DNA from: Deltaproteobacteria bacterium
GTDB taxonomy: Bacteria; Desulfobacterota; Syntrophobacteria; BM002
Direction of reading: 5' to 3'
Assembly (NCBI GenBank): GCA_037384945.1
Contig: JARRNM010000024.1
Location: forward strand, 5,297-69,296
DNA: 64,000 bases
Shown: in pieces, positions 31,480 to 37,328 of the stretch
How positions within the stretch are numbered: position 1 is the stretch's first letter
Layout of the letters: every line of letters starts with the position of its first letter
Program-made: the position numbers and the translations under genes
The notes under the pieces: generated by a model
What the model was told of the DNA's origin: nothing
What the model saw: only the letters and a program-made list of their open reading frames with translations
Database searches by the model: none

Positions 31480-33594
31480 ATGTCTAAATTAGACAAAGAA
31501 AAATTTGTCGATCTTCGGGAAAGGGCGGAGCGGGTCCTGACCGAATCTCCTGGAGGGCTCCAAAAGATACCCACAGATGTGCAGGAGCTTATCCATGAGC
31601 TGCAAGTTAGAAGTGTCGAGCTGGAAATACAGAATGAACAGCTCAGGGAAACCCAGCTTGAGCTCCAGCAGTCGCATGACCGGTATGTCGAACTCTATGA
31701 CTTCGCCCCGGTTGGATATCTCACCATGGACAGCAATGGATTTATTGTCCAGGCCAACCTGGCTGTTTGCGCTTTGTTAAAAACACAAAGAAACGTATTG
31801 TTGACTCAGCCATTCAACGATTATGTGAAAGCTTCTCAGCGGAATGAATTTGAAAACCATCTCAGTCTGGTGAGCGCAACCTTGAGCAAACAAACCTGCG
31901 AACTCGAGCTAGTGGCCAGTAATCGCTCGGAGGTCGACGTTGAGATGCTAACGGTTCCCATTGACAGCCCGGATGATGACCATGCACTGTGGTACCGGGC
32001 AATCTTAACCGATATCGGTGAACGGAAGAGAAGGGATGAAGCCTTGCAACAGGCTTATGAAGAACTGGATCTGCGCGTGGAAGAGCGTACCAGAGAACTG
32101 GTGACGATGAATGAGCAGCTGAAAGGGGTCATAAGAAAGCGGGAGCAACTGGCACAGAACCTCCAGTTAGAAGTGGAAGAACGCAAGAAAATAGAGGGAG
32201 TCCTGCGAGAAAGCGAAGAACTTTTCCGGCGCACCTTTGATGAAGCGCCAATCGGTGCGGCGATTATTTCAACGGACTTTCGATTTAAAAGGGTCAACTC
32301 TGCATTGTGCTCCATCACGGGTTATTCTCAAGAAGAACTCGAGTCTCTCAGCTTTATGGATATCACTCATCCTGAGGATAGAGCGGATAGCGGATAACCT
32401 GAAAATGGCCCAAAAACTTGCCTCCGGTGAACTCCGCGATTATCAAGTGGAGAAGCGATACATACAAAAAGAAGGCAAAATTGTCTGGGTGCGTGCCTCC
32501 ATCGAAGTGATGCGAGATGAAGCAGGAGAGCCGATTTATTACCTGCCAATGACGGAGGACATCACAGAAAAGAAAAAGGTAGAGATTAAATTACGTGAAA
32601 GCGAGGAGAAGTACCGCCTGCTGATCCAGAATTTGCCGGGGGTTGTCTACAAGGGACAGAGAGATTGGTCGGTGGAATTCTTTGATGAAAAGGCTGAAAG
32701 GTTTACAGGGTACAAAGTGGAGGAATTTTGTTCCGGCCGGAAAAAATGGTCCGACCTGATCCTGGAAGAGGACTTCGACAGAGCCAAGGAACCACTCGTC
32801 AGGGCTCTTAGGACGGACAGATCCTTCCGGAAAAAATGGTCCGACCTGATCCCGGAAGAGGACTTCGACAGAGCCAAGGAACCATTCGTCAGGGCTCTTA
32901 GGACGGACAGATCCTTTGTCAGGGAATACCGAATAAGATGCAAGGATGGACAAATTTGTTGGGTGCAGGACCGGGGAACCATAGTGTGCGATGAAAAGGG
33001 AGAGATCCTTTCTGTGAACGGCGTTCCAAACTAAGGGTTGATTCAATGAGATATGGGGAAGTATCCAGCAAGATCTCTCCTGAGCTTGAGGCACTAAGTA
33101 GGAATCTCGAGGATGCCATAGAACAGACCCAATCTTTGATATTCAGGCTCAGCCCGCCGGTTCTTTACCAGGTTGGCTTGAGTGAGGCGCTGGAGTACCT
33201 GACCGAGTTGATGGAAACAAGTTATGGTATCCCCATCGCAGTAAGTTCTGAGTTAAACTCTCTGCTGCTGCCTGAAGATGAATCCGTCCTGCTCTTTCGA
33301 GCGGTGCAGGAACTGCTGATAAACATCGTCAAGCACGCTGGAGCCAGCAGATCCAGCGTAACTCTGAAAAGAAGTGATAATCAGGTGCAGGTTGAGGTTC
33401 AGGACGACGGGGTGGGTTTCGATACACGCCTATTATCAGCGCAAGGATCAGTGAAAAAGGGGTTTGGTCTGCTCAATATCCGGGAACGTTTGCACAATCT
33501 CGGTGGACATATGGAGGTTCAATCCTCACCTGGTGGCGGCACCAAGGTTAGCATCACAGCACCGTTGCCAACCGAGACTGGCAATACTCAATAA
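31480..33594 (+). pseudogene. multi-PAS NarL-type (HisKA_3) sensor histidine kinase with multiple lesions
   Basis: Three ORF pieces (31480-32397, 32237-33034, 33046-33594). There is a 7-bp tandem duplication frameshift, a 90-bp tandem duplication, and the H-box is missing ahead of an intact HATPase_c (GVGFD, GFGLLNIRERL). Confidence 0.8.
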
Positions 33595-33607: not shown

Positions 33608-34261
33608 GTGACAATTAAGATATTTATCGCAGACGATCACAGGATTTTGCGTGAGGGTTTGCGCTCCATGATCGAAATGATAAGCAAGATACAAGTGGTG
33701 GGCGAGGCGGGTAATGGCCGTGAAGCCGTGCGGCTGGCCACGGAGAGGAGGCCGGACGTGGTAATTATGGACGTAAACATGCCAGATTTGAACGGCATTG
33801 AAGCCACGCGGCTGCTGCTTAAAGAGCTGCCCGCTGTGAAAGTGATCGGGCTGTCCATGTACTCTGATAAGCGTTTTGTGGCAGGGATGCTCAAGGCCGG
33901 AGCTTCCGGATACCTGTTGAAGGCCGGCGCCTTTGAGGAACTTGCCACTGCCGTGCAGACCGTTATGGCGGGAGATATTTACCTGAGTCCGAGAGTCACA
34001 GGGGTCGTGATAGAGGATTATGTCGGCCATTTGACGCAAGAAAAATCAGCTCTGACCGAAACGTTGAGTCCAAGGGAGCGCGAGATCCTCCAACTGCTCG
34101 CTGAAGGTAAGTCAAGCAAGGATATTGCCTCTCTCCTGAACGTGAGCGAAAAGACAGTGCACACCCACCGGCAGCATATAATGGAAAAGTTGAATCTGCA
34201 CTCCATTGCCGAACTCACCAAGTATGCCATCAGAGAGGGGATCACCACGGCGGAAAACTAG
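33608..34261 (+). CDS. NarL/LuxR-family response regulator
   Basis: Receiver domain (IFIADDH ... VVIMDVNMPDLNG) plus a LuxR helix-turn-helix (LSPREREILQLLAEGKSSKDIA). GTG start at 33608. Confidence 0.9.
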   Translation: MTIKIFIADDHRILREGLRSMIEMISKIQVVGEAGNGREAVRLATERRPDVVIMDVNMPDLNGIEATRLLLKELPAVKVIGLSMYSDKRFVAGMLKAGASGYLLKAGAFEELATAVQTVMAGDIYLSPRVTGVVIEDYVGHLTQEKSALTETLSPREREILQLLAEGKSSKDIASLLNVSEKTVHTHRQHIMEKLNLHSIAELTKYAIREGITTAEN

Positions 34262-34770
34262 TCAGGTCAAGGCGACACGGTGACAGGGAGACACGGAGAC
34301 GCGGCGATTAGAGATCAGCTGGCAGATTCCAGCGTGCAGCTTGCAGGGCAGGCCACTGTGCCTGCCGCTACATGTCAGTTGTCCGTGGTCAGTGGTCCGT
34401 TGCCACAAAGCGATTATGAATCGTGTTTTTAGATTGAAACCACGCCGGGATGGCGGGGACAGTGCCCCGCCCTACGGCACAAATCCCAAATCCCAAGCAC
34501 CAAATCCCAAACAAATTCTAAATCACAATTCTCCAATGTTCAAAACAGTGTCGTAGAAACCGCAGAAGTCGTAGAAATCGTATAAGTCGTCAATTCAGCT
34601 CACAGGAAGCTTGTCATCTGATCTCTGACTTCCGACCTCCGACCTCTGATCCTCGTCTCGCCCGTCTCGCCCGACCTCCCGTCTCGCCTTACTCCATGCC
34701 CTATGCCCAGTCCCCCATCTCATTTAAAAATCAGCATTTCTGAACCGACAAATCAGACTCCCTCCTATTG
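34262..34770. repeat. intergenic word-chain repeat region
   Basis: GACACGG words, two GC hairpins, AAATCCCAAATCCCAAGCACCAAATCCCAAAC, GTCGTAGAAA words, CCGACCTC words, CGTCTCGCC words and TTACTCCATGCCCTATGCCC. Confidence 0.9.
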
Positions 34771-34914
34771 TGTCACCTCTGGTTCTCATCGATAATGAAT
34801 CCATGCAATACATCCTGAATGGCCCTGGAGTACACGGAATAAGTCCCGCACAATCCTGCTGAGTTTGCTGGCTTTGACAAACTCAGAGAACTTAAAAAAG
34901 GGGTTTCGGCATCC

Positions 34915-35271
34915 ATGGAGATTAAAGTTCAAAAGCTGAGCGGCAAAGCGTTTGTTCAGCTCAGCGGCATCCTGAACGGCAGTACCGCCTGTGAGATAGA
35001 GCAAGTGCTTCAGTCGTTAGCAGAAGGTGGTGGCACCACATTGATCCTTGATTTCAGTGGAGTGGGCGAGGTTGAGCATTTCGGGGCTGTTATCTTTGCC
35101 AAGGTCTTGCGAAGTCAGGGCAACCGGTTTGGCAGTATCACCCTCGCCGGTCTACGACCACCAGCCGAAACAGTTTTCAAACGTTTCGGGCTGAAGTTTT
35201 CTCAAGGGAACGTAGAGCATTCATCAGGGGGAACAACACCGGGGGAGTTCCCTTCGTGGCAAACATTTTGA
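34915..35271 (+). CDS. STAS-domain protein (anti-sigma-factor antagonist-like)
   Basis: LILDFSGVGEVEHFGAVIF resembles the SpoIIAA/RsbV core, but His sits where the phosphorylatable Ser is usually found. Confidence 0.7.
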   Translation: MEIKVQKLSGKAFVQLSGILNGSTACEIEQVLQSLAEGGGTTLILDFSGVGEVEHFGAVIFAKVLRSQGNRFGSITLAGLRPPAETVFKRFGLKFSQGNVEHSSGGTTPGEFPSWQTF

Positions 35272-35618
35272 TCGTAGACAGCTACCATGCCGTAAACTTG
35301 CTCTATCAAGAGGTGCTGAAGGAACACGGCCACAATGTTTTCCCGGCTACCTCCGGAAAGGAAGCGCTTCTTGTTGCCCTAGATAGAACCATAGATATAG
35401 CGGTGGTAGAGGATAGGCTGCCTGACTTCAGTGCGGACGAAGTATTCATCAGATTGAAACTGCTTCAGCCTCATGTGCGGGGCATACTCAGCGTTTCGAG
35501 TATTTTCGGCTCCACCCCAGACGGGGAAAGGTGGGATGGATTAATCGGCAAGAGCTCCGATTACACCTTACTGAGAGCAGAGGTCGATAGACTGGCCGGG
35601 CTGGGGAATGCCACCTAA
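35256..35618 (+). CDS. receiver-like (pseudo-receiver) domain protein
   Basis: ILIVDSY ... DIAVVEDRLPD ... GILSVSS ... GKS. The fold markers are present but the acceptor position aligns with Glu. GTG start overlaps the STAS gene by 16 nt. Confidence 0.6.
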   Translation: MANILIVDSYHAVNLLYQEVLKEHGHNVFPATSGKEALLVALDRTIDIAVVEDRLPDFSADEVFIRLKLLQPHVRGILSVSSIFGSTPDGERWDGLIGKSSDYTLLRAEVDRLAGLGNAT

Positions 35619-35778
35619 AGTGGGCGTCCTGCAAGGCGCATTTTGGGATTCCTGCTCCTTGATCAGAGCAGTAGATGAGCTCCGCCGGAATACTTTTCAG
35701 GGGGATTACAGCCGAAGGAAATGATTTTGCTGAGTTGATAGGCACGTCACTAGTAGATAGATAAGGAGGGAACGCATC

Positions 35779-36018
35779 ATGCCAAGAACCAGTCCGAATC
35801 AAGATGTGAATGAGATGACCGACTCCTTGATGATAGATTTGTTCAAGAAAATAATACTTGAAGCGAAACTGGATCTACAGGAGTTAAGCGGGAGCTGGGA
35901 AGAAGCCAGTGAATTCCTGCGGATTCATTTCGGTAAATTGAGCCGGGTGATGATGAACAACCAGGGTACCCTGCACCGATTGTACCAGGATTCCATTACT
36001 GAACTGAGAAAGGCATAA
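35779..36018 (+). CDS. hypothetical small helical protein
   Basis: 79-aa ORF preceded by AAGGAGGG. First gene of a tight 3-gene set. Confidence 0.45.
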   Translation: MPRTSPNQDVNEMTDSLMIDLFKKIILEAKLDLQELSGSWEEASEFLRIHFGKLSRVMMNNQGTLHRLYQDSITELRKA

Positions 36019-36025
36019 GCCACTC

Positions 36026-36325
36026 ATGGATTTGAGAAAACCCGAGCCGGTGAATCTACCAGGAAAGAAACACACTGAATGCCCATTCTATGATTGCTGT
36101 CTTGACCAAGCAGCCCAGGGCTGGTGGGATTGGTGGAGCTGTGGAAACTGCAGGAATTATCTTTTGAACGAGGTTGAGAAACGACTGCAATATATTGGTC
36201 AGGACTATGGTTATTTGTTTCAAATTTACCCGGAATTAAAGGATAAATACGAGCGTTTTTTGCAGAGGTTCAGGTACCAGGTGAAGGAGATTTCAGCAGC
36301 AGACTGCCGCACCGTTGGTTGTTGA
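36026..36325 (+). CDS. hypothetical Cys/Trp-rich protein
   Basis: 99 aa with HTECPFYDCC ... WWDWWSCGNC, a putative metal-binding cluster. Starts 8 nt after the previous stop. Confidence 0.5.
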   Translation: MDLRKPEPVNLPGKKHTECPFYDCCLDQAAQGWWDWWSCGNCRNYLLNEVEKRLQYIGQDYGYLFQIYPELKDKYERFLQRFRYQVKEISAADCRTVGC

Positions 36326-36342
36326 GTAATGGAGAGTGCCTC

Positions 36343-36645
36343 ATGGTCAGACAGCTTCACAAATATCTGATCGAGCGGCTAACCGCAAGGGGTTTCGCCA
36401 TCGAGCACGTACCAGGTGTGGTGAGAAATGTGCTGCACCTAATTGGTGACGGCGGGGTGTTTACGACTGAGATGGTCAACCAGCAGCTCGAGTTACTGGG
36501 GTGGGGTGCAGACGCGCTTGATGAGACCAGCTTTCAACTCATTGTCTGCATTCTCGAAAGCCAGTTTGACTATAAGGTCAGCCACTACAGCATCAACCAA
36601 GAAAAAAAGGGAGCGGAAGAAGGCCCAAAAACCTATATGATGTGA
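36343..36645 (+). CDS. hypothetical protein
   Basis: 100 aa from the ATG preceded by GGAGAG. The ORF track starts it at TTG 36319. Confidence 0.45.
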   Translation: MVRQLHKYLIERLTARGFAIEHVPGVVRNVLHLIGDGGVFTTEMVNQQLELLGWGADALDETSFQLIVCILESQFDYKVSHYSINQEKKGAEEGPKTYMM

Positions 36646-36914
36646 ATGCAGGTCATGATACGCCGGGAACTGCCCAAGGTGGCCAGCCTTCCCGAAATAG
36701 GGGTTTATGACCAGACAGATTCCGAACTTTTCAAAAGAATACGCTTGGTTGAGGGGCTCTCACCGTTTCTCCGCGGTCATTAAGTCCTGTAGTGGCATCA
36801 GTTGCCTTTTGTGGCAGGCGTGTGAGAAGGACAACCGATTTTTCAGGTGCCTGGGTTGACTTTGTGGCTATTCGAAAGCCCTGTGTCCTAGGGAATCGAA
36901 CATGAGGGGTTGCC

Positions 36915-37328
36915 ATGTTGGACTGTTGTTCGGTATCAGAGGAAGAGTTAAAGAGATATTTAGCAGTCGGGACGATGATTTACGAAGATGAGAGCAGGTT
37001 TGGCGAAGCATGTGAACTGTATGGGCCAGATATCCCATTGGCATTTCTTGTAACTTTACTTAGGAAAAAGTACGAAAGCTGGAAGCAAATTGCTGATGAA
37101 TTGCAATATGGTAGAAACAGCTCTTTTCTAGCATTGGACAGTGACTATATGTACAAGTTAAAAACAGCTTGTTATTTGATTGAGAGAATCGGTTTCCTAG
37201 CCTTCAAGCCCATATGCGATTCTATAAATATTGAAACTGCAACAGCTTTGTTTATAGGTATTACGAGAAATGGTTATACAGATTGGCAGGAGGCAATCTC
37301 TGTTTTACGTAATTCTGATTTTTTCTGA
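36915..37328 (+). CDS. hypothetical protein in AT-rich islet
   Basis: 137-aa ORF. Base composition is visibly more AT-rich than the surrounding genes. Confidence 0.45.
   Translation: MLDCCSVSEEELKRYLAVGTMIYEDESRFGEACELYGPDIPLAFLVTLLRKKYESWKQIADELQYGRNSSFLALDSDYMYKLKTACYLIERIGFLAFKPICDSINIETATALFIGITRNGYTDWQEAISVLRNSDFF

Follow-up and report, generated by a model that had tools for sequence, protein, structure and literature searches.

Proteins with a STAS domain are usually understood through their phosphorylation on serine by an anti-sigma kinase. In a rather different kind of regulation, that of the PspA/PspF circuits, a small protein under a sigma-54 promoter acts back on its own activator, which it binds and tunes. 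With respect to sulfate reducers, the OrpR-type regulator is, to our knowledge, the sole characterised redox-sensing activator of its kind. The canonical STAS partner switch needs the conserved serine (PMC8256260). OrpR of Desulfovibrio has a redox-sensing [4Fe-4S] PAS domain that needs C52, C61 and C65 together with D/E54, and its regulon was reported to comprise the orp operons and nothing else (PMC8359166). Here we compare with these systems a five-gene operon from an uncultured member of the Desulfobacterota, of sulfate-reducer type, located at 34915-36645 of a 64,000-nucleotide (nt) stretch of DNA, hereafter the window (GenBank assembly GCA_037384945.1, contig JARRNM010000024.1, positions 5,297 to 69,296). 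The operon encodes an atypical STAS protein (STAS'), a pseudo-receiver (REC') and three small proteins (S1, S2 and S3), whose families are undescribed. We favour, with moderate confidence, the view that the five genes are a paralogue, lacking a sigma-54 enhancer-binding protein (EBP, the activator) of its own, of a phosphorylation-independent adaptor cassette on a two-component/sigma-54 redox or stress pathway.

The five-gene operon

The genes, all on the forward strand, are as follows (aa, amino acids).

34915-35271, forward: STAS', 118 aa, a single-domain, RsbS-like protein
35256-35618, forward: REC', 120 aa, a Spo0F-like pseudo-receiver with a GTG start inside the STAS' gene
35779-36018, forward: S1, 79 aa, preceded by a strong AAGGAGG ribosome-binding site
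36026-36325, forward: S2, 99 aa, a protein with four conserved cysteines (Cys4)
36343-36645, forward: S3, 100 aa, a small protein predicted to have four helices

The coordinates and spacing that an earlier, sequence-only reading of this DNA had given all match the open reading frame (ORF) list and the sequence: STAS' and REC' overlap by 16 nt, 160 nt separate REC' from S1, and spacers of 7 and 17 nt lie between S1 and S2 and between S2 and S3. The ORF list enters S3 as 108 aa from a TTG at 36319; its homologues begin at the ATG at 36343. All five frames are intact and each has a ribosome-binding site. The same reading had taken this for a genuine uncharacterised regulatory operon, and each gene indeed has paralogues and orthologues. 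Ratios of nonsynonymous to synonymous substitution (dN/dS, Nei-Gojobori) for the five genes lie between 0.12 and 0.55, being 0.18-0.55 against the orthologous locus on metagenome contig L017 and 0.12-0.20 against a paralogous module on contig C1 of the same genome (unsaturated synonymous sites only). The respective values are 0.33 and 0.20 for STAS', 0.20 and 0.15 for REC', and 0.19 and 0.12 for S1; S2 has 0.55 against the orthologue and S3 has 0.13 against C1. Judged by these relatives and ratios, all five are real protein-coding genes under purifying selection.

STAS' and REC'

The STAS' protein exceeds the Pfam cut-offs for both STAS_2 (32.4 bits, cut-off 29.2) and STAS (29.1 bits, cut-off 22.6), and its best PDB sequence match, a weak one, is RsbS (E=0.03, residues 3-96). 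In that alignment a histidine of the window protein lies under Ser59 of RsbS, a position that is alanine in a deposited RsbS variant chain. The corresponding loop reads [ED]-Y-F-G in the paralogues on contigs C1 and C60 and in the orthologues L017 and L020. The histidine is thus private to the window copy and the rest of the family has tyrosine; what is common to the whole family is that the phospho-site holds neither serine nor threonine. By these residues STAS' is not serine-phosphorylatable, so the sequence-only reading was right to call it so, but the histidine on which that reading dwelt does not characterise the family.

The REC' protein scores 22.4 bits against Pfam Response_reg (PF00072), under the cut-off of 30.2, and its best PDB match is Spo0F (phmmer E=1e-7, residues 3-79). 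Against Spo0F, the window protein has a glutamate under Asp54, the phospho-acceptor that corresponds to D57 of CheY, and Ser9 under Asp11. In place of the Mg-binding acidic pair of receivers, D12/D13 in CheY and D10/D11 in Spo0F, it has D8-S9, its relatives having D-G, D-N or D-S, and K99, the conserved receiver lysine (K109 of CheY), is invariant in an alignment with true receivers. Family-wide, the second aspartate of the acidic pocket has been lost, and the first aspartate and the lysine are retained. REC' is, by these residues, a degenerate receiver that has lost one Mg-binding aspartate. The acceptor region of its orthologues and paralogues reads VVDD[RKE]LPD (VVDDKLPD in the orthologue), and the acceptor aspartate is kept in C1, C60, L009, L017 and L020, with glutamate in the window copy only. 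Both the glutamate and the VDSY pocket are present as first noted, and the receiver is degenerate as first supposed, but the glutamate is a private change in a family that otherwise has aspartate. Since the relatives carry tyrosine in STAS' and aspartate in REC', the histidine and the glutamate of the window are single substitutions, and the proposal of a constitutive phospho-mimic receiver has to be abandoned. This is a caution for the reading of motifs: two conspicuous residues turned out to be one paralogue's private changes and not designed phospho-mimics.

The same 16-nt overlap between STAS' and REC' is called in L017-L020, and in C60 and L035 it is REC' that overlaps S2. By virtue of the first overlap, REC' is predicted to be translationally coupled to STAS', in which it differs from the usual single-domain receivers, coupled to a kinase. 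Like Spo0F and CheY, REC' has the size and fold signal of a receiver, the first acidic residue and the conserved lysine; it differs from them in that the second acidic aspartate is serine, glycine or asparagine in all copies. Similarly, STAS', with its 118 aa or so, consists of one STAS domain, as do RsbS, SpoIIAA, RsbV, HsbA and SypA, but the equivalent of Ser59 of RsbS is tyrosine in its family (histidine in the window), and its partners, unlike those of RsbS systems, are three undescribed small proteins. The stressosome (RsbR-RsbS-RsbT) of Bacillus, Listeria and Vibrio is no closer a model, there being no RsbR-like or RsbT-like gene in the window, C1 or C60 modules. The HsbR/HsbA and SypE/SypA systems resemble the locus in that the STAS gene stands in a regulatory operon beside a receiver-type protein (PMC8256260), and by analogy the cassette may work most like such non-canonical, receiver-coupled STAS systems.

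The window genes adjoin neither a GHKL serine kinase nor a PP2C phosphatase nor a sigma factor, and none of these occurs in the modules of C1, C60, L017, L020 and L035; their absence next to the operon had been claimed before, and neither the ORFs nor the Pfam matches of the window contradict it. Compared with the canonical partner switch (SpoIIAA/RsbV), the locus has the STAS fold but not the phosphorylatable serine, nor a kinase or phosphatase in place. That the cassette works by partner switching at all is something that we infer from its sequences, and the comparative evidence points to a link between a NarL-type two-component system and OrpR-type sigma-54 control in preference to a sigma/anti-sigma pair.

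Three small-protein families

None of S1, S2 and S3 has a credible match in Pfam, NCBIfam, PHROGs or PADLOC, or among PDB sequences (single-sequence searches for all three, profile searches for S2 and S3). The same family libraries yielded nothing for stand-alone S2 proteins, for the Cys4-only mini-proteins described below, for 84-aa relatives of S3 or for an S1 paralogue. The sequence-only reading had regarded the three ORFs as orphans with no recognised motif. They do lack any match in libraries or the PDB, but they are hardly orphans: the S2 family has at least 168 proteins, that of S3 has 282 clusters, and the module itself is triplicated in this genome. The three are thus conserved and match no known family, and on the searches made they are novel, belonging to no described family.

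S1 is the most restricted. Of 41 relatives, 20 have it, every one a member of a single bacterial family (f1), with 1-4 copies each that mostly stand alone; one paralogue of the same genome (C16:14936-15181) adjoins ClpB. In the C1 paralogue, REC' and S1 form one uninterrupted open frame of 256 aa (C1:27316-28086) with a linker of about 60 residues, unlike the window, where the two are in different frames. If the C1 frame is a natural fusion, as it may be, contact between REC' and S1 would be the more likely.

S2 is much more widespread, with 39 of the 41 related genomes and seven matches in its own genome; every one of its family members is named hypothetical and none has a Pfam domain. The motif HTECPFYDCC...WWDWWSCGNC, pointed out earlier as a Cys/Trp-rich site in the middle ORF, is present, and within it the four cysteines (C19-x5-C25-x13-C39-x2-C42) plus Y22 and W37 are the only invariant columns of the family. 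These four cysteines are a putative metal site. S2 also has W34, and its C-terminal part is helical with an IYPE[FL] motif. The AlphaFold2 model (pLDDT, the predicted local distance difference test, 75) has a short N-terminal knuckle and helix followed by two long helices, and in a Foldseek search it gave 0 matches to PDB folds. Despite the cysteines, S2 is not of the zinc-binding anti-sigma (ZAS) type, which has H-x3-C-x2-C: S2 has H16-x2-C19 and then C-x5-C-x13-C-x2-C, with a histidine that the family does not conserve.

A set of shorter proteins of 63-85 aa carries the Cys4 element only (C121:30542-30796, L036:1370-1561, L039:1148-1348, L040:1181-1396), with the motif G+G.R.FDCP.YD.CLDKAA..W.GF.C..C. 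They are class-wide and occur in about 7% of the sampled genomes of the phylum, and they have no match in Pfam or NCBIfam. A flagellar rod gene directly follows one of them, and a pilin-like gene lies downstream of another.

The 282 clusters of the S3 family came from a profile search of 1.8 billion representatives. Most of them are around 84 aa long, and Pfam and NCBIfam gave nothing for the members sampled. Their motif is VRNVL..I.DGG.FTT..VN.QLE.LGWG. Within the class S3 is present in 7 of 122 genomes, and the 84-aa relatives therefore come from other lineages. The AlphaFold2 model has four helices (pLDDT 75 overall, about 85 over residues 1-80), and Foldseek found nothing among PDB folds at E<1, the best match having E=2.4.

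Copies of the module and its architecture in related genomes

Searches with tblastn found the whole module twice more in the same genome, on contigs C1 and C60, so that the three-copy state of this genome is an expansion.

C1:26981-28718: paralogue with STAS', REC', S1, S2 and S3 in the order of the window
C60:12014-10598: paralogue with STAS', REC', S2 and S3, then a true receiver

The orthologous locus, flanked as in the window, is present on four metagenome contigs: L017-L019, which have 85-92% DNA identity with the window, and L020, which has diverged further. The chromosomal flanks (FKBP, PilZ, kinase and GT4 genes) are syntenic in three related populations. The sequence-only reading had called the locus accessory DNA; this holds insofar as the STAS' type is patchy, with 6 of 22 genomes of the bacterial family, but not for the locus as such, which keeps its place among its flanks. 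On present comparisons the cassette is lineage-specific to an uncultured family of the Desulfobacterota.

In its complete layout the module consists of a multi-PAS histidine kinase, a NarL/LuxR-type regulator, STAS', REC', S2, S3, a CheY/NtrC-like receiver and an OrpR-type sigma-54 activator, and this would be the ancestral form. The common backbone comprises the kinase, the NarL/LuxR regulator, STAS', the receiver and the PAS-containing sigma-54 activator, with REC', S1, S2 and S3 as options. The trailing receiver is a true single-domain one whose best NCBIfam matches are the receivers of NtrC and AtoC. The modules of C60, L009/L035, L011 and L028 reach as far as the activator and those of L010 and L027 as far as the receiver; the modules of the window, C1 and L017 end before the trailing receiver. 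Among the optional genes, REC' is missing in L010 and L006, S2 in L027 and L028, and S3 in L017-L019, where the DNA equivalent to 36315-36801 of the window is absent.

Upstream of the operon lie the two genes of a two-component system.

31480-33594, forward: a broken multi-PAS histidine kinase in three ORF fragments
33608-34261, forward: a NarL/LuxR-type response regulator, 217 aa (Pfam Response_reg 96 bits, GerE 80.6 bits)

The regulator is a constant upstream neighbour of the module (C60, L006, L010, L011, L017, L020, L027, L028, L035). The kinase locus had been recognised as decayed, and its three fragments bear this out: compared with L017 (blastn), the window gene has a 90-bp tandem duplication and, between 33024 and 33025, a 160-nt deletion that removes the H-box region. 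In the orthologous loci L017-L020 the kinase is intact, with 734-799 aa (734 aa in L017). Surveying gene neighbourhoods across genomes, as the sequence-only reading had proposed, thus showed a module that recurs beside NarL-type and sigma-54 regulators.

Some neighbouring genes deserve mention. Downstream of S3, a 137-aa gene at 36915-37328 is conserved in L017-L019 (85% amino-acid identity, dN/dS 0.18) and has no family match; L020 has a 68-aa ORF and a true receiver in its place. In modules of the C60 type, one more small Cys-rich ORF separates the LuxR regulator from STAS' (C60:12063-12269 on the minus strand, L004:1811-2248, L035/L009); it reads ...IQRAEGNxDCF...CDQxxCxWRKYCLEE and has no Pfam match. 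In the most complete module (L035:7915-10264), genes for HSP20, a BON-domain protein, GroES and GroEL come after that of the OrpR-type activator, and these chaperone neighbours, together with the ClpB gene beside the S1 paralogue, may indicate a stress or chaperone output.

The S2 family and sigma-54 control

The genes of the S2 family are found in three contexts: in STAS' modules (class A), standing alone beside a PAS-containing sigma-54 activator (class B), and standing alone before genes for a Crp-like cyclic-nucleotide-binding (cNMP-binding) protein and Usp proteins (class C). As an example of the last, the S2 relative at C10:7621-7881 is followed by a Crp-like cNMP-binding protein gene and tandem Usp genes; 2 kb upstream of it there is a second, unrelated small STAS-like ORF (C10:5219-5527). 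We looked for sigma-54 control of these genes as an upstream TGGCAC-N5-TTGCW element plus an adjacent PAS activator with a C-x8-C-x3-C triad. About eight independent loci of classes B and C have the element TGGCA[CT]-N5-TTGCC 61-71 nt upstream of the ATG; in one of them its second half is TGGCA. Given this constant position, it is by its sequence a clear -24/-12 promoter of the stand-alone S2 genes, which divide as follows.

C187, L013/L032, L022, L034: stand-alone S2 with a predicted -24/-12 promoter and an adjacent triad activator
C9, L014, L016, L033: stand-alone S2 with a predicted -24/-12 promoter only

Among the activators beside S2-family genes, 7 of 8 have the C-x8-C-x3-C triad with a glutamate at +2 of the first cysteine. 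Moreover, L022 and L034 have a divergent operon with the orp-like genes Nitro_FeMo-Co and CbiA/ParA. Promoters, triad activators and orp-like neighbours taken together tie the S2 family, as far as sequences can, to OrpR-type redox-responsive sigma-54 control. The activators at the ends of modules and those flanking S2 share the PAS-AAA+-HTH_8 layout of OrpR of D. vulgaris and carry its triad with the glutamate at +2, so that Fe-S binding is predicted for them from the role of these residues in OrpR (PMC8359166). The window copy differs in having no such activator nearby, and S2, S3, STAS' and REC' are all outside the orp system as described (PMC8359166).

Small, standing beside a sigma-54 activator and read from a -24/-12 promoter, the stand-alone S2 genes have the layout of a feedback modulator that is generally known from PspA and PspF. 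The resemblance is one of layout, however: S2 has no similarity to PspA in sequence or predicted fold, and in the window its gene stands within an apparently sigma-70-driven operon. The genome has four sigma-54 activators with an N-terminal C-x8-C-x3-C (C19:30332-31675, C60:7452-8900, C66:34372-36258, C187:12551-13924) and may thus have an enlarged repertoire of Fe-S redox-sensing activators.

The window itself has no activator nearby, nor is a conserved -24/-12 element present ahead of STAS', S1 or S2. A weak candidate before S1 (AGGAAATGATTTTGCT at 35716) was rejected, being unconserved in L017 and L020. Two others, before STAS' in L035 and L009 (GGGCACATAGATTGCG and TGGCGCAAGCACTGCC respectively), were discarded as well; they lie inside the coding sequence of the small Cys-rich ORF.

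The promoter region of the operon

A conserved block 120-190 nt upstream of STAS' contains two features.

34729-34772, forward: an operator-like direct repeat, AATCAG-N16-AATCAG and then ATTGTG, conserved in L017 and L020
34768-34796, forward: a sigma-70-like promoter candidate read from the sequence, TTGTGT, a 17-nt spacer and GATAAT, with both hexamers conserved in L017 and L020

The AATCAG repeats are 22 bp apart. This design of repeat and promoter recurs before the distant STAS' modules of L010, L027 and L006 and is degenerate in C1; a pattern search with variable gaps found the repeat plus ATTGTG once in the 4.7-Mb genome and 0 times in a reversed control. Considering that a NarL/LuxR-type regulator is the constant upstream neighbour of the module, the simplest explanation is that it regulates through these repeats and this promoter, and the AATCAG repeat is probably its binding site. 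A generic scan for promoters and terminators did no better than on shuffled sequence, and it does not list 34768-34796 because the -35 hexamer matches at only 3 of 6 positions; it is from the conserved hexamers that we infer a sigma-70-type promoter here. Between the regulator gene and this block is a low-complexity, repeat-rich tract (34262-34720) that L017 lacks, homology resuming at 34722, which marks it as a rapidly evolving spacer.

Proposed mechanism and rival explanations

In the scheme that we favour, the operon would be transcribed from the sigma-70-type promoter under the control of the NarL-type regulator bound at AATCAG-N16-AATCAG. Translational coupling would deliver STAS' and REC' in a fixed ratio, as a phosphorylation-independent adaptor pair. 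S2 with its presumptive Cys4 metal site, S3 and, in this sub-type, S1 would act as small binding partners that pass on or modulate the signal. The target would be a receiver or a sigma-54 activator, encoded elsewhere in the case of the window copy, for example on C60 or C187. The contacts within the cassette, metal binding by S2, the pairing of regulator with repeat and the direction of the signal are all proposed on comparative evidence.

Several observations weigh against this scheme. The window copy has no trailing receiver and activator, its kinase has three lesions, and its STAS' and REC' are each substituted at a key site; of the three copies it is perhaps the one with the least function left, and it may be drifting out of function, as the dN/dS of S2 against its orthologue might suggest. 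REC', S1, S2 and S3 are each absent from some versions of the module, whose composition thus does not define an obligatory complex. Confidence in the models of S2 and S3 is medium (pLDDT about 75). Finally, independence from phosphorylation may not be complete: tyrosine in place of serine leaves room for another modification of STAS', and weak phosphorylation may be possible for the REC' copies other than that of the window, which have kept the acceptor aspartate.

The alternative that we take most seriously, tentative though it is, makes S2, together with S3, the functional core, a redox or metal sensor or a modulator of OrpR-type activators, with STAS' and REC' as an add-on to the NarL-type system; it overlaps with the adaptor cassette. 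The relatives of S2 are indeed far more widespread than those of STAS' or REC', they stand alone beside OrpR-type activators behind predicted -24/-12 promoters, their four cysteines and flanking aromatics are invariant, and L010 and L006 have modules without REC'. Yet being a sigma-54 target is no proof that S2 regulates the activator, class C genes (with the Crp-like cNMP-binding protein and Usp) have no activator adjacent, the STAS' modules of L027 and L028 do without S2, and the OrpR regulon of Desulfovibrio is reported to be limited to the orp operons (PMC8359166). We regard as doubtful the more ambitious proposal of a new partner switch made up of STAS', REC', S2 and S3, in which the Cys4 protein S2 would be the sensor (by Zn or Fe-S) and the target would be a receiver or an OrpR-type activator and not a sigma factor. 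A classical switch by serine phosphorylation, with its kinase/anti-sigma, phosphatase and sigma factor encoded elsewhere in the genome, seems quite improbable to us. The STAS fold is confirmed and the genome does have two RsbW-like small GHKL kinases (C84 and C40) and at least 12 PP2C/SpoIIE phosphatases, but the canonical mechanism needs the conserved serine (PMC8256260), its position is tyrosine in this family and histidine here, and no kinase, phosphatase or sigma factor accompanies any module examined.

It might also be that the window copy is a decaying, redundant paralogue that has lost its signalling role and is on its way to a pseudogene cluster. This would accord with the frameshift, 90-bp duplication and 160-nt deletion of the kinase relative to L017, with the private Tyr-to-His and Asp-to-Glu changes of STAS' and REC', with the absence of the trailing receiver and activator, with the variation of S3 and the downstream gene among close relatives, and with the S2 ratio of 0.55. 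We nevertheless think it unlikely, as the five frames are intact with their ribosome-binding sites, STAS', REC' and S1 have dN/dS of 0.19-0.33 against the orthologue, the promoter/operator block is conserved, and the layout without an EBP is common to orthologues with an intact kinase (L017). Least probable of all is that the genes are cargo of a mobile accessory island (defence, toxin-antitoxin or phage-derived) and take no part in signalling. The patchiness of the module (about 6 of 22 genomes of the bacterial family), its multiple copies in one genome, and the PRiA4_ORF3 gene and AT-poor/AT-rich transition downstream could be read in that way. Against it, PADLOC gave 0 matches for any protein and PHROGs gave only generic receiver families for REC', no integrase or transposase is found among the flanking ORFs and Pfam calls, the locus is syntenic with its FKBP, PilZ, kinase and GT4 flanks in three related populations, and two-component and sigma-54 regulators are constantly found beside the module; the PADLOC and PHROGs results together with the synteny led us to reject it.

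Implications

The adaptor cassette that we favour brings together a STAS sub-family that has no serine, kinase or sigma factor and is coupled to a pseudo-receiver and to small proteins absent from curated libraries. For S1, S2 and S3, which are unannotated families common in sediment metagenomes, it offers a first functional context for each, and the link between S2 and OrpR-type activators is a concrete hypothesis that is open to reporter tests. If these proteins do form a switch, the reach of partner switching would extend to two-component and sigma-54 control; and if it is the new switch of the more ambitious proposal, it would connect two-component signalling of the NarL type with sigma-54 transcription under redox control in anaerobes of the Desulfobacterota.

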